DNA of 64,000 bases from Yuukianura sp. NJ FZ-2021 (taxonomy: Eukaryota): assembly GCA_046563655.1 (NCBI GenBank), contig CM102286.1, positions 9,114,001 to 9,178,000 on the forward strand, in the 5' to 3' direction. Below are positions 1 through 55,717 of this stretch, in pieces. The notes beneath the pieces are model-generated. The model was not told the origin of the DNA and did not search any database. It saw only the letters and a program-made list of their open reading frames with translations. The first letter of the stretch is position 1, and each line of letters opens with the position of its first letter. The position numbers and the translations under genes are program-made.

Positions 1-3000
1 AGTGTCCCAAGCTCAATTTTTCTCCGAAAATCCATTTTTTTTTTCATTTAAAACTCACAAAAAAGTCATTCAGGGCTATCTGAGGAGTGAAAATTGCAAA
101 CCAAAATTATGCTTGTGAAAGCCAATCTGAAGTGTTCCAAGCTAAATTTTTCTCTGAAAAATCCATTTTTTTTCATTTAAAACTCACCAAAAAGTCATTC
201 TGGGCTATCTGAGGAGTTAAAATTGCAAACCGAAATTATGCTTGTGAAAGCCCATCTGAAGTGTTCCAAGCTCAATTTTTCTCCGAAAAATCCATTTTTT
301 TTTCATTTAAAACTCACCAAAAGGTCATTCTGGGCTATCTGAGGAGTCAAAATTGCAAACCGAAATTATGCTTGTGAAAGCCCATCTGAAGTGTTCCAAG
401 CTCAATTTTTCTCCGAAAAATCCATTTTTTTTTCATTTAAAACTCACCAAAAAGTCATTCTGGGCTATCTGAGTCAAAATTGCAAACCGAAATTATGCTT
501 GTGAAAGAAAATCTGAAGTGTTCCAAGCTAAATTTTTCTCCGAAAAATCCATTCTTTTTCATTTATAACTCACCAAAAAGTCATTCAGGGCTATCTGAGG
601 AGTGAAAATTGCAAACCAAAATTATGCTTGTGAAAGCCAATCTGAAGTGTTCCAAGCTAAATTTTTCTCTGAAAAATCCATTTTTTTTCATTTAAAACTC
701 ACCAAAAAGTCATTCTGGGCTATCTGAGGAGTTAAAATTGCAAACCGAAATTATGCTTGTGAAAGCCCATCTGAAGTGTTCCAAGCTCAATTTTTCTCCG
801 AAAAATCCATTTTTTTCATTTAAAACTCATCAAAAAGTCATTCTGGGCTATGTGAGATGTCAAAATTGCAAACTGAAATTATGCTTGTGAACGCCCATCT
901 GAAGTGTTCCAAGCTCAATTTTTCTCCGAAAAATCCATTTTTTTCATTTAAAACTCACCAAAAAGTCATTCTGGGCTATCTGACGAGTCAAAATTGCAAA
1001 CCGAAATTATGCTTCTGAAAGCCCATCTGAAGTGTTCCAAGCTCACTTTTTCTCCGAAAAATCCATTTTTTTCATTTAAAACTCACCAAAAAGTCATTCT
1101 GGGCTATCTGAGGAGTCAAAACTGCAAACCGAAATTATGCTTGTGAAAGCCCATCTGAAGTGTTCCAAGCTCAATTTTCTCCGAAAAATCCATTTTTTTT
1201 CATTTAAAACTCACCAAAAAGTCATTCTGGGCTATCTGAGGAGTCAAAACTGCAAACCGAAATTATGCTTGTGAAAGCCCATCTGAAGTGTTCCAAGCTC
1301 AATTTTTCTCCGAAAAATCCATTTTTTTTTCATTTAAAACTCACCAAAAGGTCATTCTGGGCTATCTGAGGAGTCAAAATTGCAAACCGAAATTATGCTT
1401 GTGAAAGCCCATCTGAAGTGTTCCAAGCTCAATTTTTCTCCGAAAAATCCATTTTTTTTTCATTTAAAACTCACCAAAAAGTCATTCTGGGCTATCTGAG
1501 ATGTCAAAATTGCAAAACGAAATTATGCTTGTGAAAGAGAATCTGAAGTGTTCCAAGCTAAATTTTTCTCCGAAAAATCCATTTTTTTTCATTTAAAACT
1601 CACAAAAAAGTCATTCAGGGCTATCTGAGGAGTGAAAATTGCAAACCAAAATTATGCTTGTGAAAGCCAATCTGAAGTGTTCCAAGCTAAATTTTTCTCT
1701 GAAAAATCCATTTTTTTCATTTAAAACTCACCAAAAAGTCATTCTGGGCTATCTGAGGAGTTAAAATTGCAAACCGAAATTATGCTTGTGAAAGCCCATC
1801 TGAAGTGTTCCAAGCTCAATTTTTCTCCGAAAAATCCATTTTTTTCATTTAAAACTCACCAAAAGGTCATTCTGGGCTATCTGAGGAGTCAAAATTGCAA
1901 ACCGAAATTATGCTTGTGAAAGCCCATCTGAAGTGTTCCAAGCTCAATTTTTCTCCGAAAAATCCATTTTTTTCATTTAAAACTCACCAAAAAGTCATTC
2001 TGGGCTATCTGAGATGTCAAAATTGCAAAACGAAATTATGCTTGTGAAAGAAAATCTGAAGTGTTCCAAGCTAAATTTTTCTCCGAAAAATCCATTCTTT
2101 TTTCATTTAAAACTCACAAAAAAGTCATTCAGGGCTATCTGAGGAGTGAAAATTGCAAACCAAAATTATGCTTGTGAAAGCCAATCTGAAGTGTTCCAAG
2201 CTAAATTTTTCTCTGAAAAATCCATTTTTTTTCATTTAAAACTCACCAAAAAGTCATTCTGGGCTATCTGAGGAGTTAAAATTGCAAACCGAAATTATGC
2301 TTGTGAAAGCCCATCTGAAGTGTTCCAAGCTCAATTTTTCTCCGAAAAATCCATTTTTTTCATTTAAAACTCATCAAAAAGTCATTCTGGGCTATGTGAG
2401 ATGTCAAAATTGCAAACTGAAATTATGCTTGTGAACGCCCATCTGAAGTGTTCCAAGCTCAATTTTTCTCCGAAAAATCCATTTTTTTCATTTAAAACTC
2501 ACCAAAAAGTCATTCTGGGCTATCTGACGAGTCAAAATTGCAAACCGAAATTATGCTTCTGAAAGCCCATCTGAAGTGTTCCAAGCTCACTTTTTCTCCG
2601 AAAAATCCATTTTTTTTTCATTTAAAACTCACCAAAAAGTCATTCTGGGCTATCTGAGGAGTCAAAACTGCAAACCGAAATTATGCTTGTGAAAGCCCAT
2701 CTGAAGTGTTCCAAGCTCAATTTTTCTCCGAAAAATCCATTTTTTTTTCATTTAAAACTCACCAAAAAGTCATTCTGGGCTATCTGAGGAGTCAAAACTG
2801 CAAACCGAAATTATGCTTGTGAAAGCCCATCTGAAGTGTTCCAAGCTCAATTTTTCTCCGAAAAATCCATTTTTTTTTCATTTAAAACTCACCAAAAGGT
2901 CATTCTGGGCTATCTGAGGAGTCAAAATTGCAAACCGAAATTATGCTTGTGAAAGCCCATCTGAAGTGTTCCAAGCTCAATTTTTCTCCGAAAAATCCAT

Positions 3001-6000
3001 TTTTTTTTCATTTAAAACTCACCAAAAAGTCATTCTGGGCTATCTGAGATGTCAAAATTGCAAAACGAAATTATGCTTGTGAAAGAGAATCTGAAGTGTT
3101 CCAAGCTAAATTTTTCTCCGAAAAATCCATTTTTTTCATTTAAAACTCACCAAAAGGTCATTCTGGGCTATCTGAGGAGTCAAAACTGCAAACCGAAATT
3201 ATGCTTGTGAAAGCCCATCTGAAGTGTTCCAAGCTCAATTTTCTCCAAAAAATCCATTCTTTGTTCATTTAAAACTCACAAAAAAGTCATTCAGGGCTAT
3301 CTGAGGAGTGAAAATTGCAAACCAAAATTATGCTTGTGAAAGCCAATCTGAAGTGTTCCAAGCTAAATTTTTCTCTGAAAAATCCATTTTTTTTTCATTT
3401 AAAACTCACCAAAAAGTCATTCTGGGCTATCTGAGGAGTTAAAATTGCAAACCGAAATTATGCTTGTGAAAGCCCATCTGAAGTGTTCCAAGCTCAATTT
3501 TTCTCCGAAAAATCCATTTTTTTCATTTAAAACTCATCAAAAAGTCATTCTGGGCTATGTGAGATGTCAAAATTGCAAACTGAAATTATGCTTGTGAACG
3601 CCCATCTGAAGTGTTCCAAGCTCAATTTTTCTCCGAAAAATCCATTTTTTTCATTTAAAACTCACCAAAAAGTCATTCTGGGCTATCTGACGAGTCAAAA
3701 TTGCAAACCGAAATTATGCTTCTGAAAGCCCATCTGAAGTGTTCCAAGCTCACTTTTTCTCCGAAAAATCCATTTTTTTCATTTAAAACTCACCAAAAAG
3801 TCATTCTGGGCTATCTGAGGAGTCAAAACTGCAAACCGAAATTATGCTTGTGAAAGCCCATCTGAAGTGTTCCAAGCTCAATTTTCTCCGAAAAATCCAT
3901 TTTTTTTCATTTAAAACTCACCAAAAAGTCATTCTGGGCTATCTGAGGAGTCAAAACTGCAAACCGAAATTATGCTTGTGAAAGCCCATCTGAAGTGTTC
4001 CAAGCTCAATTTTTCTCCGAAAAATCCATTTTTTTTTCATTTAAAACTCACCAAAAGGTCATTCTGGGCTATCTGAGGAGTCAAAATTGCAAACCGAAAT
4101 TATGCTTGTGAAAGCCCATCTGAAGTGTTCCAAGCTCAATTTTTCTCCGAAAAATCCATTTTTTTTTCATTTAAAACTCACCAAAAAGTCATTCTGGGCT
4201 ATCTGAGATGTCAAAATTGCAAAACGAAATTATGCTTGTGAAAGAGAATCTGAAGTGTTCCAAGCTAAATTTTTCTCCGAAAAATCCATTTTTTTCATTT
4301 AAAACTCACCAAAAGGTCATTCTGGGCTATCTGAGGAGTCAAAACTGCAAACCGAAATTATGCTTGTGAAAGCCCATCTGAAGTGTTCCAAGCTCAATTT
4401 TTCTCCGAAAAATCCATTTTTTTTTCATTTAAAACTCACAAAAAAGTCATTCAGGGCTATCTGAGGAGTCAAAATTGCAAACCGAAATTATGCTTGTGAA
4501 AGCCAATCTGAAGTGTTCCAAGCTCAATTTTTCTCCGAAAAATCCAGTTTTTTTTCATTTAAAACTCACCAAAAAGTCATTCTGGGCTATCTGAGATGTC
4601 AAAATTGCAAAACGAAATTATGCTTGTGAAAGCCAATCTGAAGTGTTCCAAGCTAAATTTTTCTCCGAAAAATCCATTTTTTTTCATTTAAAACTCACCA
4701 AAAGGTCATTCTGGGCTATCTGAGGAGTCAAAACTGCAAACCGAAATTATGCTTGTGAAAGCCCATCTGAAGTGTTCCAAGCTCAATTTTCTCCGAAAAA
4801 TCCATTTTTTTTCATTTAAAACTCACAAAAAAGTCATTCAGGGCTATCTGAGGAGTCAAAATTGCAAACCGAAATTATGCTTGTGAAAGCCCATCTGAAG
4901 TGTTCCAAGCTCAATTTTCTCCGAAAAATCCAGTTTTTTTCATTTAAAACTCACCAAAAAGTCATTCTGGGCTATCTGAGATGTCAAAATTGCAAACCGA
5001 AATTATGCTTGTGAAAGAAAATCTGAAGTGTTCCAAGCTAAATTTTTCTCCGAAAAATCCATTTTTTTTCATTTAAAACTCACCAAAAGGTCATTCTGGG
5101 CTATCTGAGGAGTCAAAACTGCAAACCGAAATTATGCTTGTGAAAGCCCATCTGAAGTGTTCCAAGCTCAATTTTTCTCCGAAAAATCCATTCTTTTTTC
5201 ATTTAAAACTCACAAAAAAGTCATTCAGGGCTATCTGAGGAGTGAAAATTGCAAACCAAAATTATGCTTGTGAAAGCCAATCTGAAGTGTTCCAAGCTAA
5301 ATTTTTCTCTGAAAAATCCATTTTTTTCATTTAAAACTCACCAAAAAGTCATTCTGAGCTATCTGAGGAGTCAAAATTGCAAACCGAAATTATGCTTGTG
5401 AAAGCCCATCTGAAGTGTTCCAAGCTCAATTTTTCTCCGAAAAATCCATTTTTTTCATTTAAAACTCATCAAAAAGTCATTCTGGGCTATGTGAGATGTC
5501 AAAATTGCAAACTGAAATTATGCTTGTGAACGCCCATCTGAAGTGTTCCAAGCTCAATTTTTCTCCGAAAAATCCATTTTTTTCATTTAAAACTCACCAA
5601 AAAGTCATTCTGGGCTATCTGACGAGTCAAAATTGCAAACCGAAATTATGCTTCTGAAAGCCCATCTGAACTGTTCCAAGCTCAATTTTTCTCGGAAAAA
5701 TCCATTTTTTTTCATTTAAAACTCACAAAAAAGTCATTCTGGGCTATCTGAGGAGTCAAAACTGCAAACCGAAATTATGCTTGTGAAAGCCCATCTGAAG
5801 TGTTCCAAGCTCAATTTTCTCCGAGAAATCCATTTTTTTTCATTTAAAACTCACCAAAAAGTCATTCTGGGCTATCTGAGGAGTCAAAACTGCAAACCGA
5901 AATTATGCTTGTGAAAGCCCATCTGAAGTGTTCCAAGCTCAATTTTTCTCCGAAAAATCCATTTTTTTCATTTAAAACTCACCAAAAGGTCATTCTGGGC

Positions 6001-9000
6001 TATCTGAGGAGTCAAAATTGCAAACCGAAATTATGCTTGTGAAAGCCCATCTGAAGTGTTCCAAGCTCAATTTTTCTCCGAAAAATCCATTTTTTTTCAT
6101 TTAAAACTCACCAAAAAGTCATTCTGGGCTATCTGAGATGTCAAAATTGCAAAACGAAATTATGCTTGTGAAAGAGAATCTGAAGTGTTCCAAGCTAAAT
6201 TTTTCTCCGAAAAATCCATTATTTTTCATTTAAAACTCACCAAAAGGTCATTCTGGGCTATCTGAGGAGTCAAAACTGCAAACCGAAATTATGCTTGTGA
6301 AAGCCCATCTGAAGTGTTCCAAGCTCAATTTTTCTCCGAAAAATCCATTCTTTTTTCATTTAAAACTCACAAAAAAGTCATTCAGGGCTATCTGAGGAGT
6401 GAAAATTGCAAACCAAAATTATGCTTGTGAAAGCCAATCTGAAGTGTTCCAAGCTAAATTTTTCTCTGAAAAATCCATTTTTTTCATCTACAACTCACCA
6501 AAAAGTCATTCTGGGCTATCTGAGGAGTCAAAATTGCAAACCGAAATTATGCTTGTGAAAGCCCATCTGAAGTGTTCCAAGCTCAATTTTTCTCCGAAAA
6601 ATCCATTTTTTTTCATTTAAAACTCACCAAAAAGTCATTCTGGGCTATGTGAGATGTCAAAATTGCAAACTGAAATTATGCTTGTGAACGCCCATCTGAA
6701 GTGTTCCAAGCTCAATTTTTCTCCGAAAAATCCATTTTTTTCATTTAAAACTCACCAAAAAGTCATTCTGGGCTATCTGACGAGTCAAAATTGCAAACCG
6801 AAATTATGCTTCTGAAAGCCCATCTGAAGTGTTCCAAGCTCAATTTTTCTCCGAAAAATCCATTTTTTTCATTTAAAACTCACCAAAAAGTCATTCTGGG
6901 CTATCTGAGGAGTCAAAACTGCAAACCGAAATTATGCTTGTGAAAGCCCATCTGAAGTGTTCCAAGCTCAATTTTTCTCCGAAAAATCCATTCTTTTTTC
7001 ATTTAAAACTCACAAAAAAGTCATTCAGGGCTATCTGAGGAGTGAAAATTGCAAACCAAAATTATGCTTGTGAAAGCCAATCTGAAGTGTTCCAAGCTAA
7101 ATTTTTCTCTGAAAAATCCATTTTTTTTTCATTTAAAACTCACCAAAAAGTCATTCTGGGCTATCTGAGATGTCAAAATTGCAAAACGAAATTATGCTTG
7201 TGAAAGAGAATCTGAAGTGTTCCAAGCTAAATTTTTCTCCGAAAAATCCATTTTTTTTCATTTAAAACTCACCAAAAGGTCATTCTGGGCTATCTGAGAT
7301 GTCAAAATTGCAAAACGAAATTATGCTTCTGAAAGCCCATCTGAAGTGTTCCAAGCTCACTTTTTCTCCGAAAAATCCATTTTCTTCATTAAAAACTCCC
7401 CAAAAAGTCATTCTGGGCTATCTGAAGAGTCAAAATTGCAATCCGATATTTTGCTTCTGAAAGCCCATCTGAAGTGTACCAAGCTCAATTTTTCTCAAAA
7501 AAATCCATTTTTTCATTAAAAACTCCCCAAAAAGTCATTCTGGGCTATCTGAGGAGTCAAAACTGCAAACCGAAATTATGCTTGTGAAAGCCCATCTGAA
7601 GTGTTCCAAGCTCAATTTTTATCCGAAAAATCCATTTTTTTTTTCATTTAAAACTCACCAAAAGGTCATTCTGGGCTATCTGAGGAGTCAAAATTGCAAA
7701 CCGAAATTATGCTTGTGAAAGCCCATCTGAAGTGTTCCAAGCTCAATTTTTCTCCGAAAAATCCATTTTTTTTTTCATTTAAAACTCACCAAAAAGTCAT
7801 TCTGGGCTATCTGAGATGTCAAAATTGCAAAACGAAATTATGCTTGTGAAAGAGAATCTGAAGTGTTCCAAGCTAAATTTTTCTCCGAAAAATCCATTTT
7901 TTTCATTTAAAACTCACCAAAATGTCATTCTGGGCTATCTGAGGAGTCAAAACTGCAAACCGAAATTATGCTTGTGAAAGCCCATCTGAAGTGTTCCAAG
8001 CTCAATTTTCTCCGAAAAATCCATTTTTTTTCATTTAAAACTCACAAAAAAGTCATTCAGGGCTATCTGAGGAGTGAAAATTGCAAACCAAAATTATGCT
8101 TGTGAAAGCCAATCTGAAGTGTTCCAAGCTAAATTTTTCTCTGAAAAATCCATTTTTTTCATCTACAACTCACCAAAAAGTCATTCTGGGCTATCTGAGG
8201 AGTCAAAATTGCAAACCGAAATTATGCTTGTGAAAGCCCATCTGAAGTGTTCCAAGCTCAATTTTTCTCCGAAAAATCCATTTTTTTCATTTAAAACTCA
8301 TCAAAAAGTCATTCTGGGCTATGTGAGATGTCAAAATTGCAAACTGAAATTATGCTTGTGAACGCCCATCTGAAGTGTTCCAAGCTCAATTTTTTTCCGA
8401 AAAATCCATTTTTTTCATTTAAAACTCACCAAAAAGTCATTCTGGGCTATCTGAGGAGTCAAAATTGCAAACCGAAATTATGCTTCTGAAAGCCCATCTG
8501 AAGTGTTCCAAGCTCAATTTTTCTTCGAAAAATCCATTTTTTCATTTAAAACTCACCAAAAAGTCATTCTGGGCTATCTGAGATGTCAAAATTGCAAAAC
8601 GAAATTATGCTTGTGAAAGAGAATCTGAAGTGTTCCAAGCTAAATTTTTCTCCGAAAAATCCATTTTTTTTTCATTTAAAACTCACCAAAAGGTCATTCT
8701 GGGCTATCTGAGGAGTCAAAACTGCAAACCGAAATTATGCTTGTGAAAGCCCATCTGAAGTGTTCCAAGCTCAATTTTTCTCCGAAAAATCCATTCTTTT
8801 TCATTTAAAACTCACAAAAAAGTCATTCAGGGCTATCTGAGGAGTGAAAATTGCAAACCAAAATTATGCTTGTGAAAGCCAATCTGAAGTGTTCCAAGCT
8901 AAATTTTTCTCTGAAAAATCCATTTTTTTCATCTACAACTCACCAAAAAGTCATTCTGGGCTATCTGAGGAGTCAAAATTGCAAACCGAAATTATGCTTG

Positions 9001-9440
9001 TGAAAGCCCATCTGAAGTGTTCCAAGCTCAATTTTTCTCCGAAAAATCCATTTTTTTCATTTAAAACTCATCAAAAAGTCATTCTGGGCTATGTGAGATG
9101 TCAAAATTGCAAACTGAAATTATGCTTGTGAACGCCCATCTGAAGTGTTCCAAGCTCAATTTTTCTCCGAAAAATCCATTTTTTTCATTTAAAACTCACC
9201 AAAAAGTCATTCTGGGCTATCTGAGGAGTCAAAATTGCAAACCGAAATTATGCTTCTGAAAGCCCATCTGAAGTGTTCCAAACTCACTTTTTCTCCGAAA
9301 AATCCATTTTTTTCATTTAAAACTCACCAAAAAGTCATTCTGGGCTATCTGAGGAGTCAAAATTGCAAACCGAAATTATGCTTGTGAAAGAAAATCTGAA
9401 GTGTTCCAAGCTAAATTTTTCTCCGAAAAATCCATTTTTT
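1..9440. repeat. Tandem satellite array, ~129-bp monomer, about 73 copies, open at the window start
   Basis: The unit AGTGTTCCAAGCTCAATTTTTCTCCGAAAAATCCA(T)nCATTTAAAACTCACCAAAAAGTCATTCTGGGCTATCTGAGGAGTCAAAATTGCAAACCGAAATTATGCTTGTGAAAGCCCATCTGA recurs at 1, 131, 260, 390 and onward. Length variation is mostly in the T-run. Confidence 0.98.
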
Positions 9441-10490
9441 AGTCTTCTGGAGACGCACGTCTACGACGTGCTGAAGAAGACTATTGATACGACTTTGTCT
9501 GTCCGTCCGTCCGTCACACTTTTTAGGACTTTTTGCACTGAAACATTAGCCCCATTATTGACCGGGGGTTCTGTATCGCTCAAGTGTTTTCATTATGTCT
9601 ACATTCCACTCAAAGTGTTATCTTAACAACGTAGAAATGGGCGACCACTTTACGCACACGCGGTGTAGTCGTTTCCCGGAAACGTTTTGGTTTCGATTAC
9701 ACTCAAAATATATTTAAACAACGAAGTTTTGACTCTGTCATTTTCTGATAGTATGTTTATTTGCGTTGTTAAATTAAGACTGATCAGAGGGTAGAAAATC
9801 CGGCTTAAATTCGTAATACGTAAATAGTGGTTGGCAGCGTTCAAATTTTCATTCACAAGAAATTTTTATAATTTTGATCTTAAACAAATCATATTCGACT
9901 CTGTTATTTATGAACATGACTTAACACATGGTGCATGTATTTTGATTTTTAAGAAGCTATAATTGACACCTGCCTCTCAACGTTTAATTTCGTGCACACT
10001 TATAAGTAGATGCACATAAGTGTCACATTGCGCAGATATTTTGACGCTGGGTAATGAACCTTGTTATTTCAACATTTGTGCATACTGGAGAATAACTGCA
10101 CATACATCTTTTAGAATGGTGATTACATCAGAATAATTGTGCATTTATATGAACAGATTTAATGGAATTCTAATTGTGTTCATACTTGAGAACAATTTGA
10201 TGCAAAAATGTTGTGAATCAAAATAATTTTCAGGAGAGTGGAAACTGTTCAGGACTAAAGCTGAACTACATTCTTATGCAAACGGGTTTTTCACATTTTG
10301 GTGCAATTGTGCACAAAAGGGCCCCACATCACATCTGCACTGAAAATTTTGAGCGACGTTTTGGTGCATCAGCTACATGAAAACGGTTTCTCAGTTCTAC
10401 AGTTTTGAGGCAGACCGGTTTAAGTCGCATCAATTGCCAACTCCCTCCAGAAGACCTATGCTCAACCCTTGAGCATTGCCCTACCTTGTT
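9441..10490 (+). mobile_element. Helentron-associated non-autonomous element (HINE/DINE-1-like), family A copy 1
   Basis: 5' AGTCTTCTGGAG with hairpin CACGTC-TAC-GACGTG and short IR GAAGACT, then a (GTCC/GTCT)n microsatellite. 3' subterminal IR CTCCAGAAGAC followed by stem-loop ATGCTCAA-CCC-TTGAGCAT. Inserted in the T-run of a satellite monomer with no distinct TSD. Confidence 0.8.
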
Positions 10491-11394
10491 TTCATTTAAA
10501 ACTCACAAAAAAGTCATTCAGGGCTATCTGAGGAGTCAAAATTGCAAACCGAAATTATGCTTGTGAAAGCCAATCTGAAGTGTTCCAAGCTAAATTTTTC
10601 TCGGAAAAATCCATTTTTTTTCATTTAAAACAAAACTCACCAAAAAGTCATTCTGGGCTATCTGAGGAGTCAAAATTGCAAACCGAAATTATGCTTGTGA
10701 AAGCCCATCTGAAGTGTTCCAAGCTCAATTTTTCTCCGAAAAATCCATTTTTTTTCATTTAAAACTCACCAAAAGGTCATTCTGGGCTATCTGAGGAGTC
10801 AAAATTGCAAACCGAAATTATGCTTCTGAAAGCCCATCTGAAGTGTTCCAAGCTCAATTTTTCTCCGAAAAATCCATTTTTTTTTTCATTTAAAACTCAC
10901 AAAAAAGTCATTCAGGGCTATCTGAGGAGTCAAAATTGCAAACCGAAATTATGCTTGTGAAAGCCAATCTGAAGTGTTCCAAGCTAAATTTTTCTCGGAA
11001 AAATCCATTTTTTTTCATTTAAAACAAAACTCACCAAAAAGTCATTCTGGGCTATCTGAGGAGTCAAAATTGCAAACCGAAATTATACTTGTGAAAGCCC
11101 ATCTGAAGTGTTCCAAGCTCAATTTTTCTCCGAAAAATCCATTTTTTTCATTAAATACTCTTCAAATAGTCATTCTGGGCTATGTGAGATGTCAAAATTG
11201 CAAACTGAAATTATGCTTCTGAAAGCCCAAGTGTTCCAGACTCAATTTTTCACCAAAGAATCATTTTTGTCATTAAATACTCTTCAAAAAGTCATTCTGG
11301 GCTATCTGAGGAGTCGAAATTGCAAACCGTTATAAAACTTGTTAATGCCCACCTGAAGTGCACAAATCTCAATTTTTCTCCAAAAATACATTTT
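10491..11394. repeat. Continuation and degenerate edge of the 129-bp satellite (~7 monomers)
   Basis: Same monomer resumes in register after the HINE; the last 2 monomers are clearly more diverged. Confidence 0.95.
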
Positions 11395-11828
11395 AGTCTC
11401 CTGGAGACGCATGTCTGCGACATGCTGAAGAAGACTATTGATACGACTTTGTCCGTCTGTCCGTCCATCCGTAACCTTTTTTAGGACACTTTGCGCTGAA
11501 ACATAAGTCCTAACGCACTTGGGGGCTATTTATGGCTCTAAGTGTTTTTAGTAGTTCTACATTGCACTCAAGTCGTACATTAACAACGTAGAAGTGTGCG
11601 GTTGCTTTACGTACCCGCAGTATCGTGGCTCAGCAAAACTGTTTTGGTTTCGATTGAACTGAAAGTATTTATAAACAACGGAGTTTTGATCTGTTCATTT
11701 TCTGGCAAGATGTTTAGTTACGTTGTTAAATTAAGACTGATTAGCGGGTAGAAAATCCGGCTTAAATTGTAACACGTAAACAATGCATGACAGGGTTGAA
11801 ATTTGCCTTTGCAAGAAATTTTTATGTT
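11395..11828 (+). mobile_element. HINE family A copy 2, 5' part only
   Basis: Starts AGTCTCCTGGAGACGCATGTCTGCGACATGCTGAAGAAGACT plus GTCC microsatellite; ends where copy 3 begins. Confidence 0.75.
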
Positions 11829-12835
11829 AGTCTTCTGGAGACGCATGTCTACGACATGCTGAAGAAGACTATTGATACGACTTTGTCTGTCTGTCCGTGT
11901 GTCACACTTTTTAGGACTTTTTGCACTGAAACATTAGCCTCAAGGTGGGTAAACAAGCAGATTGTTGATTGCTACAAGAGGTTATTCGTTAACTCGGCGT
12001 TTGACTTCGTTAACTCATTATTGACCGGGGGTTCTGTACCGCTCAAGTGTTTTCATTATGTCTACATTCCACTCAAAGTGTTATATTAACAACGCAGAAG
12101 TGGGCGGCTACTTCCCATTGCCGACTCTTCTTACTTAAATTTTTTTGACACCTCTGCATTGCACTCAAAATATTTTTCAACAACGAAGTTTTGACCTGGT
12201 CATTTTCTGACAGTATGTTTATTTACGTTGTTAATTTGGGAATGATGACAGGGCTCAAACTCCGGTTTAAATTTGTAACATGTAAGCAGCGAATAGGAGG
12301 GTTCAAATTTGCATTCACAAGAAATTTCTTTGATTTTGATTTTAAAGAAACGATATTGGACCCCTACCCCACAACGTACAATGTTGTGCATGATGCACAC
12401 AATTGAAGGTTTGTGCAGTTGTGAGAACTACCTTGAGCATTGCCATGACAACATCGACAATACATTATGTGCATCTTCCTCAAGAAATCAAGAACATCAA
12501 TCAAGAACGATATTCGACCCCTTCTTCTTAACGTTCAATTTTGTGCACACCAAATTAACAACATCAATTCACTGCAAACATTTTGGGCCTCAGAACGTTA
12601 ACATGATTTTGGCTCAATTAAACGGTAAAATTGCCAAGAAAATTTTGGTGCAACTCATGCACAAAATAGGATCTCATATTCCCACTGGAAATTTTCAGTG
12701 ATGTTTTAGAGCACCAATTTCATGAACACGGTTTCTTAGTTCGTCCACAGTTTTGCTGTAGGCCGGTCTCAATGTCGGATCAATTGTCAACTCCCTCCAG
12801 AAGACCTGTGCTCAACCCTTGAGCCCTACCTTGTT
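11829..12835 (+). mobile_element. HINE family A copy 3, full length
   Basis: Same 5' end; 3' CTCCAGAAGACCTGTGCTCAACCCTTGAGC..CCTACCTTGTT. Confidence 0.8.
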
Positions 12836-13509
12836 TTTTACTAAACTGGAAACAAGGTAGGGCGATGCTCAAGGGTTGAGCATAGGTCTTCTGGAGGGAG
12901 TTGACAATTGATACGACATTTAGACCGGCCTACCGCAAAACTGGACGAACTGAGAAACCGTATTCATGTAATTGAAGCTTTAAAACGTCACTGAAAATTT
13001 TTAGTGCGAATGTGAGACACTACTTTGTGCATGAGTTGCACCAAATTTGTCTTGGCAATCTTACCGTTTAATTGAACCAAAATCATGTTAAAGTTTTGAC
13101 TGCACTCACTGCACTGAACTGATGTTGTTAATTTGTTGTGCACCAAATGCACAAAATTGAACGTTTAGGAGAAGGGAGGCCTTACGCCTGCTACGGACTT
13201 ACGCTCGGTACGGACTTACCGTGCTGCTGCCTTGACGATGCTTTGCTGCGCTGTTTTTGTTAAAAAACACTGATCCTAACTTACTTGTGCCTTCCCCGTG
13301 CTGTGCTGCCTCATTTTGGCAAGGCAACGACAGAGCAAGGGAAAGCATCCTAACTTCCCGTTTTGCTTACCGTGCTCCTGCTCTTACCGTGCTCTTTGGA
13401 AAGTAGGGACGGAAGCAACTTTTGAGGAAGCACGAGCAAAGCAAATTTGCTTTTTTGGAAACAATTGTTCGTTTTCTGATCAAAGTTAGTTTTGCTAACA
13501 TCAAGCATC

Positions 13510-14333
13510 ATGGCTGATGGATTTAGCACAGTTTCGGTGGAGCTGGAACAGCAGCTCATTGACGGGGTCAGGGACAGGTTGTGTATCTGGGACAAATCCA
13601 GTGACACGTACAAAAACAAGGTTCTCCGAGAAAATGCATGGAAGGAAGTCGGAGTGTCTCTTGGAATCACTGGTAAAGTTTACGTTTTTGAGAAAAAAGT
13701 AGTACTTCTAAAAAAAATCAACTAATTTTGGAAAAAAAATCAGGAGGAAAGGTGAAGGAACTATGGGGAAGCCTGAGGTCACAGTTCACGAGATTTCGTA
13801 AGAAATTGATGAACCCATCTGGAAGTGGAAATGGACGACGGCCGTATTTTCGTCATGAAGAGGCCATGAAATTTTTGGTGGAGATCATTGAGCCAGAAGA
13901 GAACTCTTTGACGAATTTGGATTCAGAAATCCTTCCAGTTTTTGACTCTCAAGAACTATACGAAGTAGGTGTCGTGGATGAAGTGGATATTATATCAAAT
14001 GAACATGGCACTGAGCCTGCGCAAACTGGATCTTCAACCACGCCAATGCTGCCAAGGTCAAAAGAAAATGACGTGCTTCGATGCCATTCTAAATTTGGAA
14101 AGAAGCGAAAGGTCGATGACCCGAAATCAACCGACTTTGACAAAGAAGTGTTGAAGATCATGGCGGCTGGAATGGCGGCTGGAACAAGTGAAGACGACGA
14201 ATTTGATGCGCTGGGGAAAGTCTTTGCAAAGAAAATGCGACATTTGGGTATGCAAAGCAGACGATCGTTTTTGGAAGTCGAGCTCAAGGTTAATTCAATT
14301 ATTAACCAAGCGGAGATCGAATTACTCAACTAA
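13510..14333 (+). CDS. Harbinger accessory MADF (Myb/SANT-like) DNA-binding protein with BESS-like C-terminus, ~250 aa; exons 13510-13672, 13744-14333
   Basis: Motifs LIDGVRDRLCIWD..YKNK..ENAWKEVG..VKELWGSLRSQF..RPYFRHEEAMKFL. A GT-AG phase-1 intron joins the two ORFs in frame. C-terminal DEFDALGKVFAKKMRHL helix. Confidence 0.88.
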
Positions 14334-14893
14334 TCATTTAATGTACATTATTTTCAGTGCTAATTATTAAAATGTTATTATTTGTTAAGTGTTTGAATAA
14401 AAATAAAATTATAAAATGTGGCATTCAACAAGGCTGAATTTTTAACGCTTTTGTTTCCATTTAATCAACCCAGAGAGCGTTAATTTTCATGAATTTTGAT
14501 ACCTCAGTTCAATTTGTAGGACAACTCTGTGAAAACGAATCCCGTTTTAACAATTTTGAAAATAAAATAAAATTGAAATTAGAAATAAAGTCGACGCCAC
14601 ATAAAAAATTAGATTTCTGACACACGAAAGTTTACATGGATTCCAATAATTTGAAAGGACGAATCTCATTGGTCCAAAAACAAAGCATTGAGCAAGATAG
14701 GGAAAGAGATAGGAAAAATACACAGGGAAAAACTCCATCTCTCCACATGAGAATTCCCGTATCTCAAGAGACTTTAAAAGTTCAACTGGCGTCTTTTCAT
14801 TTTTTAAGTAATTTTATTTTTTAAGTAATTTCATTTTTTAAAGTAATTTTATAATATTGCTAAAATTAATAGCATAACTTTGTAAATTTTTAT

Positions 14894-16270
14894 CTATATT
14901 CTATCGTTTTGCCAAGCTACAGCTCCTTCTGAGTTGAAGTAATCTTTGAAAGCATGACGAATTCCTGCAGCAGTTGTGGAATAATTATTTGACCCCTGTT
15001 GATGAATGCCGTGAAGTCCTGTATCCGATGCTGTGGTTTGTCTCCAATTTCCATTCTTTTCCCCCGATTCGGAATCCGCAGTAATCGTGTTCATGTCGTT
15101 TTTTGTCAGTAGAAAGTTGTGAAGGATGATACATGTCTTCACAATCAACTTTACAAATTCTAGGTCAGCGTGAATTGCAGAAAAGAATATTCGCCACCTG
15201 GCGGCTAGTATACCAAATGCATTCTCCACAACCATTCTTCCTCTTGACAAACGATAATTAAAGATTCTTTCCTCCCGAGGTAGAAACTTCCCTGGATAAG
15301 GCTTCATAATGTACGGTTTAAGAGAAAATGCGTCGTCGCTCAAAATTACATGGGGCAGACGGCGCTGTCCAACCAATTTTGGTGGAGGTATTCCGAGAGA
15401 TTCGTTTTCTAGTTTCTGCCCAAGGGGCGACCGTCCCAAAATTCCTCCGTCCGACTGAGAGCCACTGCGACCAATGTCAACTGCGATAAATTTGTAATTT
15501 GGATCCACAATGCCAAGCAGCACAATTGAAAAGAAGTTTTTGTAGTTGTAGAAACTGGATCCAGAAAATTTTGGACACCGAACACGGATGTGCTTTCCGT
15601 CCATGGACCCAACAGCGTTTGGGTAGTTCCATTTTTCGTTGAATCCTTGTTCACTTTTTTCCCACATTTCTTGTGATGGCGATGGAAGATACTTCGGCCC
15701 CATTTTGTCGCAAATTACGCTCATGACATCTCTAAGTACCGTACTGATGTGCTGCGGCGATATTCGGTAGCTTAAGGCCATAGAGATTTGGCTGTTCCCA
15801 CTAGCTAAAAACCTGGAATTCGTGAAAAATTAAAACTTTTCAATTTTTAGAACTTCTTTTTTTTATAACTTTAAAACTTTGTCCTCAAGTGTCTACTCAC
15901 CTCAGAGTTAAAGCTAGTTTATCAATTAATGAAATCGGAACCCGGTGAGTTTTCTTTGTCTGCAGACACGAAATACTTTCGTAAATCTCGTCAAAGTTCT
16001 CCTTTGTCATTCTGTTTTGAATTTGTAAAAAATATAATAAGGCAAGGTTCCAATTCGAAAAAAAAGTAAAATGGCTCACCGAAAATACTTGAAATGATAA
16101 TAAGGATCCTGCCGAAGTTCTTTCGCCAACAAACTTTCGCCTTTTGACAATCGGTTCAAAAAAATGGGCCGAATGTACTCTGACCTGCTTTTCTTCTTTT
16201 GAATCACTTTGTTTCGAATACGGCGCAGCACAAGCAAACGTACGGCCAATTGTAACTTTGATGGCGCCAT
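14894..16270 (-). CDS. PIF/Harbinger (HARBI1-like) DDE transposase, apparently intact, ~406 aa; exons 16270-16080, 16011-15901, 15812-14894
   Basis: Splicing restores YFRMTKENF and LTLRFLASG. Catalytic-region motifs GSMDGKH, SDGGI, LSDDAF, FNYRLSRGRMVVENAFGILAARWRIF, LHNF. Total 1221 nt in frame. Confidence 0.93.
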
Positions 16271-16472
16271 TTTTTACAGAGTTGTCCTACAAATTGAACT
16301 GAGGTATCAAAATTCATGAAAATTAACGCTCTCTGGGTTGATTAAATGGAAACAAAAGCGTTAAAAATTCAGCCTTGTCGAATGCCACATTTTATAATTT
16401 TATTTTTATTCAAACACTTACCAAATAATAATATTTTAATAATTAGCACTGAAAATAATGTACATTAAATGA

Positions 16473-17744
16473 TTAGTTGAGTAATTCGATCTCCGCTTGG
16501 TTAATAATTGAATTAACCTTGAGCTCGACTTCCAAAAACGATCGTCTGCTTTGCATACCCAAATGTCGCATTTTCTTTGCAAAGACTTTCCCCAGCGCAT
16601 CAAATTCGTCGTCTTCACTTGTTCCAGCCGCCATTCCAGCCGCCATGATCTTCAACACTGTTCAGAAGAAACAAGCTTCTTCAGAACCAAGGAAGACCTA
16701 GCTTTAACCTTGACACTCTGTCTTACTCTTTTTACTTTGTGTCAATTTCCATAATCTTAAATTAGCCTAAGAACATGCATTTTACCTACGCCTAGATTTT
16801 ACTCCACAGTGGAGTTAGATTCGCCCTCGTTTTACTCCACATTGGAGTTAGATTTCTTGTTGTCTTACTCCTCCAGAAAGGTATAAAAGTAAGTCCCCTG
16901 GTCATTCTCCAGGGGTTTTAGTTAGTCATTCTCGTTTTGAGCTTCAACAGCTCCTCCAACCTTTCTTGCCATAACTTTTCCTAACGCCAAATAAAGCTCA
17001 TACAATTCGACTCGGTTGTTTTGTGCTAAAGTTCATTGACTCTCTGACTTCCACTACTCTCATCGGTAGTGCGGCATAACCTTTATGCTGCAGACCGAAC
17101 AAACACTTCTTTGTCAAAGTCGGTTGATTTCGGGTCATCGACCTTTCGCTTCTTTCCAAATTTAGAATGGCATCGAAGCACGTCATTTTCTTTTGACCTT
17201 GGCAGCATTGGCGTGGTTGAAGATCCAGTTTGCGCAGGCTCAGTGCCATGTTCATTTGATATAATATCCACTTCATCCACGACACCTACTTCGTATAGTT
17301 CTTGAGAGTCAAAAACTGGAAGGTTTTCTGAATCCAAATTCGTCAAAGAGTTCTCTTCTGGCTCAATGATCTCCACCAAAAATTTCATGGCCTCTTCATG
17401 ACGAAAATACGGCCGTCGTCCATTTCCACTTCCAGATGGGTTCATCAATTTCTTACGAAATCTCGTGAACTGTGACCTCAGGCTTCCCCATAGTTCCTTC
17501 ACCTTTCCTCCTGATTTTTTTTCCAAAATTAGTTGATTTTTTTTAGAAGTACTACTTTTTTCTCAAAAACGTAAACTTTACCAGTGATTCCAAGAGACAC
17601 TCCGACTTCCTTCCATGCATTTTCTCGGAGAACCTTGTTTTTGTACGTGTCACTGGATTTGTCCCAGATACACAACCTGTCCCTGACTCCGTCAATGAGC
17701 TGCTGTTCCAGCTCCACCGAAACTGTGCTAAATCCATCAGCCAT
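16473..17744 (-). pseudogene. Second copy of the MADF-BESS gene in the right arm, disrupted by a solo LTR
   Basis: Near-identical mirror of 13510-14333 (EILP vs ENLP). The frame is broken after DFDKEV by the 443-bp insert. Confidence 0.88.
16659..17101 (+). mobile_element. Solo LTR, 443 bp (5-bp TSD, BEL/Pao- or Copia-like)
   Basis: TGTTC...GAACA termini; AACAC duplicated at 16654-16658 and 17102-17106 but single in the left arm; TATAAAA at ~16882 and AATAAA at ~16989. Confidence 0.88.
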
Positions 17745-19747
17745 GATGCTTGATGTTAGCAAAACTAACTTCGATCAGAAAACGAACAATTGTTTCCAAA
17801 AAAGCAAGTTTGCTCTGCTCGTGCTTCCTCAAAAGTTGCTTCCGTCCCTACTTTCCAAAGAGCACGGTAAGAGCAGGAGCACGGTAAGCAAAACGGGAAG
17901 TTAGGATGCTTTCCCTTGCTCTGTCGTTGCCTTGCCAAAATGAGGCAGCACAGCACGGGGAAGGCACAAGTAAGTTAGGATCAGTGTTTTTTAACAAAAA
18001 CAGCGCAGCAAAGCATCGTCAAGGCAGCAGCACGGTAAGTCCGTACCGAGCGTTATCGTTCTTGATTGATGTTCTAAATTTTTTGAGGAAGATGCACATA
18101 ATTTATTGTCGATGTTGTCATGGCAATGCTCAACGTAGTTCTCAAACCTGCACAAACCTTCAATTGTGTGCATCATGCACCAAATTGTACGTTGTGGGGT
18201 AGGAGTCGAATATCGTTTCTTTAACATCCAAATCATAAAAATTGACTCGTGAATGCAAATTTAACCCCTTTCATTCCCTATTCACATATTAAGCATTTAA
18301 GCCGGATTTTCTAACCTCTAACTAGGCTTAAATTAACAATGTGAATAGACATACTGTCAGCAAATGACAGGGTCAAAACTTCGTTGTTTAAATATATTTT
18401 GAGTGTAATCGAAACCAAAATGTTTTCGGGAAACGACTACACTGCGTGTGCGTAACGTGGCCGCCCATTTCTACGCTGTTAATTCTACAATTTTAGTGCA
18501 ATGTAGACCTAATGAAAACACTTGAGCCAAACATAACCCCCCGAACAAATTGGGGCTTATGTTTCAGTGCAAAGTATCCTAAAAATGTGACAGACGGACG
18601 GACGGACAAAGTCGTATCAATAGTCTTCTTCAGCACGTCGTAGACGTGCGTCTCCAGAAGACTAAACCTAAAAGTACAAAAGAACATATGGAAAGTTAAC
18701 GGTTCGTGTACCTTCGCAGGAACACTGAAGAATTCTTTTGGGAAATTCAAATGCAATACAATTTTTTCAATTCCATGGAAGTCTTATTTAAAGCACAAAT
18801 TTCCACTTCGAATTCCTTAGACTTCAAAAGAATTCCCTTTGCCTGAAAAAAACAGGCACATCTCAGGATTTCTTTCAAAAACCATTCTTTGGAAGTAGAT
18901 TGTGTTCTCGCAAAAAAAACTCTCCTATTTGCACTTCATGTGAATTCTAACGAATTCCGACATAAGGAATTCCCAACTTGTTCTGTTTTGAGAACATTTG
19001 GGGAATTCCTTAGGAATTCCCTAGGAAATTTCCTAGGAATAGAGCTTGCTGCTGGGGTAGATTGCATCAAGTAAAAATTCTAGATATTGATGGGACTTAG
19101 CAAGATTTCATCAAGTAAAAATTTTAGATATTGATGGGACTTAGCAAGATTTTATCAATTAAAAATATTAGATATTGACGGTAATATGCAAGATTTCATC
19201 AAGTAAAAATTTGAGATATTGATGGGACTTAGCTAGATTTCATCAAGAAGAATTTTAAATATTCATGAGACTTAGTTAGATTTCATCAAAAAGAAATTTT
19301 AGATATTCATAAGACTTAAGCTAGATTGCATCACGAAGAAATTTTAGATATTCATGAGACTTAGCTAGATTTCAGCAATAAGAAATTTGAGATATTGATG
19401 GGACTTAGCTAGATTTATGGCGGGCGAGTAGCTCAGTGGTTAAGGCTCCCATCCTTTTCCACTGTCTACCTGAGATTGTATGCTAAGCCTATGAAAAAGT
19501 CAACGCAGGGAGATGGACTCGATCCGTCGTCCTGCCGCGTCAAGTAATAGAGAGTTATAGCAAACTCAAATATAGAGCGAAATATAGAATATAAATATAG
19601 ATTCTATATTCATATTCTATATTTTGAAATATGGAACAGCTACACTTACAGCACAATTTATACGAAAAAATTATAAATATAAGTTACAGGAATTTCAAAC
19701 GGTTGAGTCCTGTTTAAACCCGCCAAAGTAGACTGCGCTGGCAAAGT

Positions 19748-20676: not shown

Positions 20677-20792
20677 AAGTTAAGAAACCATCCTATTGTT
20701 CTTAACAATTACGTTTTGCGTCTCAATTTCCCCAACCACCGAGCTTTTCATCCTGTAATTCTATATTTCATAATCGAAATATAGAACTTTTC

Positions 20793-21484
20793 GGTTAGAC
20801 TACGGTTTCTGGGGCAGTGAAAATTTTTTCTAAGTTTTTTGGTCAAAATTTTCGAAAAATTTTTTCTTCGATTTTTCCACTTTTTATCATGTTTCAAACG
20901 TTTTTGGCACGTTTGGAACAAAAAAAAATTTTTGACCCCAAGGGTCCCCCCTTCCCATTTTTTTGAGAATCGGACTCGAAAATTTTCCAAGTACAAAAAC
21001 TGAAGTGGTCACCCCTGACAACCACAAAAATGACCCTTACAAAAGTTGTTCAGAATCTTAAGGGGAGTATTTTTTGTCCTATGGACTATGACCCTACGAC
21101 CACTCCTTCAGGTCAGAGGTCAACGCAAACATTTCCCCAATTCGTCTTTCCGTTGACCTCTGACCTGAACGAGTGGTCGTAGGGTCATAGTCCATAGGAC
21201 AAAAAATACTCCCCTTAAGATTCTGAACAACTTTTGTAAGGGTCATTTTTGTGGTTGTCAGGGGTGACCACTTCAGTTTTTGTACTTGGAAAATTTTCGA
21301 GTCCCGATTCTCAAAAAAATGGGAAGGGGGGACCCTTGGGGTCAAAAATTTTTTTTTGTTCCAAACGTGCCAAAAACGTTTGAAACATGAAAAAAAGTGG
21401 GAAAATCGAAAAAAAAAAATTTCGAAAATTTTGACCAAAAAACTTAGAAAAAATTTTCACTGCCCCAGAAACCGTAGTCTAACC
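20793..21484. mobile_element. Fold-back palindromic MITE, ~333-bp arms, 8-bp TSD (possibly Merlin-like)
   Basis: GGTTAGACTACGG ... CCGTAGTCTAACC; AACTTTTC at 20785-20792 and 21485-21492; ~25-bp spacer. Confidence 0.88.
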
Positions 21485-22112
21485 AACTTTTCTATATTTC
21501 TCATAATCACCAAATATAGATTATGGAGCCTTCCATATTCCATATCTATATTCTATATTCTATATTTTCCATAAAGTGAGTTGCTATAACTCTCTAATAG
21601 TATGCAAGGCAGCAGTCCCTCGCAAGATTATAATATGTTGATGAGCGGAGGCAATTCGTCTGTCTTATGAGAAATAAGATAATTTAAATACGAAAAGCCA
21701 GAAGCTCGAGGTGGAGGAGTTTCTGGGCATATCCTTCCCCTCTCAGACTGCTGAATACCCAGTGAAAGAAATGATAACCGGTTAAAGGCAGCCCGAACTC
21801 AAACAGTATGTCCCTAATGGAGTTACTGAAATAGGCCCGTCTAAGTGCGCCTCATCGGTGCGGGCTAAGCCTCGGCGTAGCCCCCTCCTGAAAAAGATAC
21901 ATACATACATATAGCTAGATTTCATCAAGAAAAAATTTTAGATATTGATGGGACTTGGCAAGATTTCATCAAAAAAACAACAGCAATATCTTGGAAAATT
22001 TCAATTTTTCATGAATAAAGAAAATACATTTTTGAGAATTTGTTAGCCTAATCCTGACCTTTTCCTCCTCTAGGAAGGTAGAAGGTGCGATGTTGTTTTC
22101 AAAAAACAATAT

Positions 22113-23290
22113 TTTGCAAACATCGTCCGTAACCTTCGCGTTTTTCTATATATCCGTCTTTTGCTGGATATATAGTCAATTTAAGGAATTTACAGTGAAA
22201 GCATTTAATTTCGTCGTACTAAAAATCTATTTATAAAATTTAAAATATTAATTAAAAAAAAAACTAAAAAAAACCAACGCTTGATTTTGATAAAATTTGG
22301 CAATAATTTCAACAAAATGGCAACTTAAGCACTGCAAGCTACCTCTGCATGTTCCGCTAGATAGCTACGCTCCGACATACTATAACTACGGTTAGTTCAA
22401 TTTCACCTTGTCAACGTATCTGCTCACTATTTAAACCTATTTTATACATTTTTAAGCACTGCAAGCTACCGCTGCATGTTCCGCTAGATAGCTACGCTTT
22501 GACACTCTTCACCTTTGTTTCTTTGTTGAAGCGTAGCTGGCAAGCGGTGAATGTAGCGGTCGTTAGCATTAGTATAATATGCATAGATTATGTTTGTGTA
22601 ACATCAGAATTGAGAAAATGTCAAAAAAAATTAAATTATTTTACTTTGTTGTTGAAGCGTAGCTGGCAAGCGGTGAATGTAGCGGTCGTTAGCATTAGTA
22701 TAATATGCATAGATTATGTTTGTGTAACTTCAGAATTGAGAAAATGTCAAAAAAATTAAATTATTTTACTTTGTTGTTGAAGCGTAGCTGGCAAGCGGTA
22801 AATGTAGCGGTCGTTAGCATTAGTATAATATGCATAGATTATGTTTGTGTAACATCAGAACTGAGAAAATGTCAAAAAAATTGAATTATTTTACTTTGTT
22901 GTTGAAGCGTAGCTGGCAAGCGGTAAATGTAGCGGTCGTTAGCATTAGTATAATATGCATAGATGATGTTTGTGTAACATCAGAACTGAGAAAATGTCAA
23001 AAAAAATTGAATTATTTTACTTTGTTGTTGAAGCGTAGCTGGCAAGCGGTAGCGGCCTGCGATTTTGTTTTAGGGTATTTTTAAAAAATTCAAATAACAT
23101 TTAAAAATTTAATTTAATTTTTCAAAAAAAATAAAAACAAAAATTTTCAACTTTCAACTTCTTTTATAAATTTTTTTAAAAAAAAAATTTAAATTACAGA
23201 CAAAGCTGTCAGGGATTGTAAAACTAAAACTCTAACTTCATTGTATTTTTTCGATAAAAAAACCCGAAGGTTACGGACGATGTTTGCAAA
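22113..23290. mobile_element. Element with 26-bp inverted repeats enclosing a ~126-bp tandem array (~22522-23050, about 4.2 units)
   Basis: TTTGCAAACATCGTCCGTAACCTTCG ... CGAAGGTTACGGACGATGTTTGCAAA; units recur at 22528, 22654 and onward. Confidence 0.65.
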
Positions 23291-55668: not shown

Positions 55669-55717
55669 GCTTGTTAATATTACTTTTTAAAGTACAAATG
55701 AGATTACATAGGAATAC

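Follow-up and report, generated by a model that had tools for sequence, protein, structure and literature searches.

A palindromic PIF/Harbinger locus from Yuukianura sp., favoured as a one-off rearranged member of a young transposon family

Canonical PIF/Harbinger transposons carry terminal inverted repeats (TIRs) of 14-25 bp and generate TTA/TAA target-site duplications (PMC2213677). The TIRs of the superfamily have also been called "highly variable", and the Caenorhabditis elegans elements Turmoil1 and Turmoil2 are described as having "unusually extended, composite TIR structures" (PMC13668399). The locus treated here lies in a stretch of 64,000 nt from Yuukianura sp. NJ FZ-2021 (assembly GCA_046563655.1, contig CM102286.1, positions 9,114,001 to 9,178,000, forward strand; hereafter the window, whose numbering is used throughout). 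It is a palindromic PIF/Harbinger element that combines a transposase of the DDE_Tnp_4 type with a MADF partner: one intact MADF gene and one truncated MADF gene lie in opposite inverted arms, with a single intact transposase gene between them. The inverted ends of this copy are 1330 nt long, not 14-25 bp. The available family evidence favours a Harbinger family that is young and otherwise ordinary, of which this locus is a rearranged, one-off member.

The inverted repeat itself is genuine and far exceeds what chance would produce. A repeat search of the window recovers it as two pairs, 13201-14152 with 17102-18053 (952 nt, 99%; 99.475% by blastn) and 14147-14535 with 16271-16659 (389 nt, 99%; 98.972% by blastn). 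The right arm as a whole spans 16276-18053 and is split by a 443-bp insertion. Once this insertion is removed, 9 of 1335 positions mismatch, 8 of them within 13201-14530; the arms differ by 0.6%. Thus, the original prediction of ~99% identical 1.33-kb inverted arms was right in identity (8 of 1330 positions differ) and in place, but the right arm does not run uninterrupted over 1.33 kb. Unbroken identity stops at ...CTCTGT (14530/16276), exactly where the prediction had put it. Four more A's are common to both sides beyond this point, and these could represent microhomology.

The evidence that bears most directly on the history of the palindrome comes from four public DNA sequencing runs (X1-X4), produced in two studies and containing 35-58% of the sampled words, whose contigs were aligned at a likeness of at least 90%. 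Results from these contigs rest on the best 30 of 3709 aligned pieces, 24 of 494 loose ends, and 15 of 29 joints. Three of the runs (X1, X2, and X4) possibly derive from the assembly's own sample, and a sequence missing from the contigs is not thereby shown to be absent. The tool itself warns that contig depth does not give copy number, and a comparison of arm and core depth was accordingly dropped as a copy-number test. Matching contigs number 1163 in X1, 1486 in X2, 318 in X3, and 639 in X4, and fall into identity classes of 99+, 95-99, and 90-95%. Because the variant contigs span 90-99+% identity, the element belongs to a multi-copy family, some members of which are young and others older. 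This family has been active recently: the runs contain copies of at least 98.5% identity.

The two inner junctions of the palindrome fare very differently in these contigs. The left junction (14530/14531), at which the 3' end of the MADF gene faces the 3' end of the transposase gene, is found in several variant copies with divergence up to ~4%. It is bridged by X4 record 26 (13857-14824; 11 differences, 4 gaps), by X2 record 11 (14428-14598; 1 difference), and by X3 record 18, whose two pieces together correspond to 13406-14774, ~4% diverged and without the long terminal repeat (LTR) insertion described below. The occurrence of this junction in different copies indicates that the tail-to-tail order of the MADF and transposase genes is ancestral in the family. 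An unrelated Harbinger at 53-57 kb of the window has the same tail-to-tail order, and a distant metagenome relative (L001) may have it as well.

In contrast, the right junction (16275/16276) is carried by no contig among the matches listed for X1-X4. X3 record 22 agrees with 15946-16273 at all but 1 of 328 positions (99.7%) and then, at the right junction, continues with 61 letters unlike the window. Its orientation was checked against record 18, in which the start of the record corresponds to the higher coordinate on minus-strand rows. The X3 depth in the bin 16199-16419 is 2.91, which equals the contribution of record 22 alone (8.57 x 75/221), indicating that no X3 contig bridges the right junction. 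The original prediction, which held that the arrangement of two MADF genes to one transposase moved as a unit and is the architecture of a family, is weakened by these contigs: a near-identical copy leaves at the right junction, matching the one-off pattern that the prediction itself had named as refuting.

The outer ends carry a second asymmetry. TTA is present outside both arms, as first described, but the left end is ambiguous, and the TTA originally chosen there (13199-13201) is the inner of two. This end reads TTA-CGCCTGCTACGGAC-TTA-CGCTCGGTACGGAC-TTA-CCGTGCTGCTGCC, whereas the right end, read inward, is TAA-CGCTCGGTACGGAC-TTA-CCGTGC..., with a single 17-mer in place of the two in tandem at the left. 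The extra CGCCTGCTACGGAC and its TTA form a 17-mer (13182-13198) that matches the next one (13199-13215) at 14 of 17 positions. The 17-mer pattern has three matches in the window (13182, 13199, and 18039-18055 on the minus strand) against 0.02 expected. For the one insertion examined, a TTA stands on both sides as a candidate TWA duplication, with two candidates 17 nt apart at the left. The target duplication may be the outer TTA (13182-13184), and the outer 17-mer would then be part of the element.

The DNA around the locus is itself repetitive, and this allows the insertion to be delimited. Read backwards, the other arm of the host repeat matches 13110-13176 along 12576->12519 and then 18054-18144 along 12512->12422. 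This continuity of the host repeat across both sides makes the Harbinger-derived DNA, at 13177-18053, a simple insertion into an older repeat of foldback-like form. Together with the TTA flanks, it also fits element ends that the transposase defined. The six intervening host letters, GTCGAA in the other arm, match AGGCCT in length if the TTA at 13182-13184 pairs with that at 18053-18055. A terminus at GGCC (13178), a start that we take to be typical of some PIF/Harbinger ends, was also considered; it was not adopted, since neither a TWA duplication nor a right end to match would go with it.

The reading that we favour, and consider somewhat probable, starts from a canonical element with one MADF gene converging on one transposase gene; an inverted copy of the MADF-side end then took the place of the transposase-side end, most likely when a break was repaired faultily. 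The family's canonical layout would run from the left end through a rightward MADF gene and a leftward transposase gene to a right end that includes the transposase's own upstream region. In the palindromic copy, everything past the transposase ATG would have been replaced by the inverted left 1.33 kb, comprising the terminus, the subterminal repeats, the MADF gene, and its 3' region. During erroneous repair of a double-strand break or gap, a strand primed at the right flank would copy the short right terminus, switch to the left end of the template at its inner, near-identical 17-mer, and proceed inward for 1.33 kb through the MADF gene. It would finally be end-joined, over 0-4 nt of homology (AAAA), with the other nascent strand at a point just before the ATG. 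Later, an LTR retroelement would have inserted into exon 2 of the right MADF gene and collapsed to a solo LTR. Such a template switch would explain both why the two TTA flanks were kept and why the left end has an additional 17-mer.

Since the transposase ATG lies 0-5 nt from the right arm's inner edge, any promoter and right terminus native to that side have been lost from the palindromic copy, and expression of the transposase is doubtful because its native upstream region is gone. Judging from its reading frames, the copy still appears to encode one intact MADF protein and one intact transposase. It might also still be mobilised, given the TACCGTGCT repeats present in both arms. The setting is a satellite-rich repeat region, in which broken copies persist.

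Several points weigh against this history. The TTA on both sides and the clean host continuity would be equally expected of a transposed composite; indeed, TTA flanks cannot separate an element that moved as a unit from one repaired in place, because both keep the duplication. Other copies of the right junction could exist beyond the matches listed, and X3 may represent an individual without this insertion, since contigs cannot show absence. The 61 non-window letters of X3 record 22 are only a putative normal right end, no canonical right terminus turned up among the matches listed, and the template switch and the function assigned to the 17-mer are accordingly conjectural. Finally, six consecutive host-arm mismatches at the insertion point blur the exact left boundary.

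Much of the same evidence has to be weighed for the view that the palindromic layout is instead a transposition-competent composite with two left ends, which moved as a unit into this TTA and has, or once had, a family of its own. The TTA at both ends and the host repeat that resumes exactly across the insertion are consistent with this, as are the full set of terminal and subterminal motifs in both arms, the intact transposase gene and single intact MADF gene, and the recent activity of the family, with its run copies at least 98.5% identical. However, the right junction is missing from the contig matches listed, and the 99.7% identical X3 record 22 departs precisely there. In addition, the ends differ by a 17-mer, which is unexpected for two same ends unless they were cut at different sites; the upstream region of the transposase is lost; and blastn detects no further copy of the palindromic Harbinger within the 64-kb window. 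We consider a mobile composite of this kind unlikely.

The palindrome could also have arisen from two copies, if a second or a MADF-only copy inserted beside the first in inverted orientation, or if alternative transposition engaging the ends of two copies or of sister chromatids made a composite insertion, and a deletion then fused it just ahead of the transposase ATG. Alternative transposition of Ac/Ds is reported to yield composite insertions with inverted duplications (bioRxiv 10.1101/2020.01.07.897926), and MADF-only derivatives are described for other Harbinger families (PMC13668399). One X1 joint, 14383->17870, might represent such a MADF-only derivative, but its side of 21 letters lies within repeated motifs, where a chance match is possible, and it was set aside as too weak. 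A two-copy origin also requires more steps. Both a second right end and a second target duplication are missing, and the host shows a simple insertion rather than the flanking rearrangements that are usual after alternative transposition. Thus, this route is very unlikely.

Lastly, the palindrome might be an assembly artefact in which reads of different copies were wrongly joined. Repeats abound in the region, no contig among the matches listed spans the whole stretch, and the runs that cover it best possibly come from the assembly's own sample and would hence not be independent. Yet the arms carry 8 differences, and only one of them holds the 443-bp insertion with its 5-bp duplication. Unlike in fold-back chimeras, a 1.7-kb unique core stands between the arms, and both outer junctions fit one host repeat. 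The 0.6% difference between the arms, together with the LTR element gained and collapsed in one of them, argues both that the structure is not brand new and that a fold-back artefact is unlikely. Misassembly is therefore a highly improbable explanation, and the repair of a canonical element remains the favoured one.

The transposase gene is intact, as originally predicted, with three exons that encode a stop-free protein of 406 residues. This protein matches the Pfam profile DDE_Tnp_4 (PF13359) at 2e-29 over 158 of 158 profile positions and is collinear from first to last residue with Folsomia candida proteins annotated as "ALP1-like/HARBI1". When the protein is aligned with 12 homologues selected out of 120 listed, the invariant acidic columns DGK, D, and E(NAFG) prove to be retained. 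Of 5634 candidates in a homologue search, 4982 proteins scored E<=0.001; the closest are contig proteins that are 61-66% identical, followed by F. candida proteins at ~60%. A tree was built from 118 rows, consisting of the window protein and 117 of the 120 listed matches (P0025, P0041, and P0054, shorter than 250 aa, were dropped). Within it, the transposase falls in a 43-row clade of Harbinger-type transposases with SH-aLRT support of 99, and within that clade in a 19-row subclade with support of 98. The named rows of the 43-row clade are all from springtails (7 Folsomia, 1 Allacma). Thus, the transposase groups with springtail Harbinger transposases, which makes a springtail or near relative the probable host, and the PIF/Harbinger identity first proposed for the element stands on its DDE_Tnp_4 and MADF domains as well as on this clade.

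A metagenome scan with a 25-letter terminal motif gave 0 matches, and a scan of viral contigs found no relative. With the transposase as query, the metagenome scan found one distant locus, L001, which is 4.1 kb long, 44% identical, and too short to reach the element ends. In L001 an open reading frame (ORF) converges on the transposase gene, and its C-terminus weakly matches the C-terminus of the window MADF protein (E 6e-4, pairwise); this ORF has no MADF or BESS match in Pfam. In this part of L001 (2975-3237 and 3470-3877), the converging ORF has an acidic C-terminal stretch, and the DNA separating it from the transposase gene contains an inverted repeat of 30 nt.

Within the sequenced family, other structural variants were seen in the runs. 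In X1, X2, and X3 the segment 14466-14656 (191 nt) is replaced by 12 letters, and in X2 and X4 the transposase gene has a 248-nt deletion (15210-15457). Summed depth over the arms' outer ~300 nt is ~10 times that of the interior, which, depth being no copy number, hints at short non-coding relatives of the miniature inverted-repeat transposable element (MITE) type.

The left MADF gene encodes a complete protein of 250 residues, and AATAAA signals follow it at 14396 and 14402. Its first exon matches the Pfam profile PF10545 (MADF_DNA_bdg) at 5.6e-8 and its second at 0.0088, and the two exons contiguously cover profile positions 1-37 and 45-84. In the right copy the reading frame enters the LTR and ends at a stop at 17085-17083. 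The last 6 of its 196 residues are foreign, and the product is without the C-terminal 60 residues of the 250-residue protein. Because the LTR insertion truncates the right copy, there is only one complete MADF gene. Of the complete MADF-BESS gene originally assigned to each arm, therefore, the left MADF gene holds, while the proposals that depended on a second working copy, a doubled dosage of the partner and a backup, fall with the right one. As for BESS, PF02944 gave no Pfam match at E<=10 on the C-terminal 62 residues of the MADF protein or on exon 2. The acidic DDEFD...helix pattern at this C-terminus does resemble BESS. A homologue search with MADF exon 2 yielded 61 candidates, 0 of them at E<=0.001, in line with the remark that BLAST cannot keep up with the rapid evolution of MADF partners (PMC9710019).

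The subterminal TACCGTGCT repeats may be what this partner recognises. All 6 exact matches in the window lie inside the arms, 3 per arm and less than 200 nt from the tips. With up to 1 mismatch allowed there are 13 matches against 5.1 expected, a number reached in 0 of 100 shuffles. By analogy with Harbinger3_DR, whose Myb-like protein binds a 9-bp subterminal motif (PMC9710019), the repeats are probable candidates for MADF-protein binding sites.

The 443-bp insertion that breaks the right MADF gene has the features of a solo LTR. It is confined to the right arm, has TG...CA ends, is flanked by a 5-bp duplication (AACAC at 16654-16658 and 17102-17106), and contains TATA and poly(A) signals. 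Two X4 contigs (records 28 and 29), one of them 15.7 kb long, begin matching exactly at 16659, which indicates that the insertion is repeated elsewhere in the organism's genome. The positions of all these features are collected in Table 1.

Table 1. Positions of the features that make up the palindromic Harbinger locus and its flanks, in window coordinates
Feature	Position	Strand	Description
Host repeat, left part	12016..13176		Own 84% hairpin at 12538-13148; continues inverted at 18054-18666, ~81-85% identical
Outer TTA	13182..13184		Candidate left target-site duplication in the length-consistent model; host-arm alignment and motif scan
Extra terminal 14-mer, CGCCTGCTACGGAC	13185..13198	+	Left end only
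Left arm	13201..14530	+	Element end with subterminal repeats; whole MADF gene plus 3' region
Three exact TACCGTGCT motifs	13217..13393	+	At 13217, 13368, and 13385; mirrored at 17861, 17878, and 18029
Left MADF gene, intact	13510..14333	+	Exon 1 13510-13672, intron 13673-13743, exon 2 13744-14333; 250 aa
Unique core between arms	14531..16275		Transposase gene and 560 nt separating the two stop codons
Transposase gene, intact	14894..16270	-	Exons 16270-16080, 16011-15901, and 15812-14894; 406 aa, stop-free
Right arm, inner part	16276..16658	-	MADF 3' region and last part of exon 2, severed from the rest of the gene
Solo-LTR-like insertion	16659..17101	+	443 bp; TGTTC...GAACA ends, TATAAAA at 16882, AATAAA at 16990
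Right MADF gene, truncated	17083..17744	-	Exon 1 17744-17582, exon 2 from 17510; 196 aa
Right arm, outer part	17102..18053	-	Mirrors 13201-14152
Right TTA	18053..18055		Candidate target-site duplication
Host repeat, right part	18054..18666		Resumes where 13176 stopped, judged by the host's other arm

The host repeat belongs to a complex repeat with copies at 9438-9901, 11392-11826, and 12016-13176, of which 12016-12512 is the recurring stretch, continuing in inverted orientation at 18054-18666; these copies adjoin blocks of satellite. Summed over the contigs of the runs, its depth reaches 100-400 times the value for the Harbinger interior. The repeat is possibly an element of the foldback type, with the satellite either carried or seeded by it. 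The satellite has a 128-bp unit, present in 73 copies (93% matches) at 1-9440 and in 7 more (87%) at 10489-11394, and shows a strong negative GC skew.

The second, unrelated Harbinger of the window (53049-57041) has TIRs of ~34 nt. Its transposase is spread over several exons on the plus strand, where the C-terminus of DDE_Tnp_4 is matched, and its partner, on the minus strand, matches Myb_DNA-bind_5 at 1.7e-19. An element of ~1.1 kb with inverted ends of ~150 nt lies inside it at 53904-54988, probably a nested non-autonomous insertion. Elsewhere in the window there is an inverted repeat of 226 nt with 95.6% identity (20776-21000 / 21276-21500; arms ~275 nt apart), together with tandem arrays at 22523-23051 (125-bp unit x 4.2, 98% matches) and 19058-19416 (44-bp unit x 8.2, 83%).

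Compared with PIF, Ping/Pong, and Harbinger3_DR, the palindromic locus is alike in having a DDE_Tnp_4 transposase, a separate partner gene of the Myb/SANT/MADF kind, TTA flanks, and a subterminal motif. Canonical PIF/Harbinger elements, however, have short TIRs and a single partner gene, whereas the window copy has 1.33-kb ends that enclose the partner gene. If it is indeed a one-off, the locus is a natural example of break repair turning a short-TIR, two-gene transposon into a long-armed palindrome. It is also a record of a Harbinger family that is young and probably still active, harboured by a springtail-type genome and bearing candidate motifs to which its MADF protein may bind.

Turmoil1 and Turmoil2 share the superfamily and the MADF partner with the window element (PMC13668399). 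They are family consensus structures, whereas the palindrome is a single copy, and the available text of PMC13668399 does not state that a MADF gene lies inside the TIRs. The full-text literature searched describes no Harbinger with its partner gene inside the TIRs; the supplements of PMC13668399 might cover the contents of the Turmoil TIRs. Kilobase-scale inverted termini are also described for Galileo (P superfamily), Foldback, and Tetris (PMC3688188, PMC4079207). These belong to other superfamilies, and their long TIRs are a family trait made of non-coding repeats or arrays of binding sites.

Were the palindrome a mobile composite after all, it would be a eukaryotic design resembling that of a compound transposon. 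The bacterial compound transposons Tn10 and Tn5 have inverted arms that each carry a gene for movement, and the gene of one arm is typically defective. Each of their arms is an entire insertion sequence with the transposase gene in it, whereas the window arms carry the DNA-binding partner and the transposase is central.

Derivatives with an inverted duplication of one transposon end are known from other DNA transposons. Maize Mu killer is an inverted duplication of a DNA transposon end plus part of a gene (PMC3440606), and both Mu killer and composite Ac/Ds loci are reported to give rise to hairpin RNA and small interfering RNAs that silence the family (PMC3440606; bioRxiv 10.1101/2020.01.07.897926). 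Like the window locus, they are natural derivatives; unlike it, they are without an intact transposase between the arms, and the window locus is known from DNA only. The palindrome could, in principle, be or have been a working "compound" Harbinger, with two left ends that moved as a unit; a transcript reading on through both MADF arms would then form a long hairpin RNA and supply small RNAs that silence the entire family. We regard this combination as distinctly unlikely. As a hairpin source that silences its own family, the locus would bear on the question of how a DNA transposon new to an animal genome is initially recognised. If the combined reading were true, the element would be an animal counterpart of maize Mu killer, made by the transposon itself.

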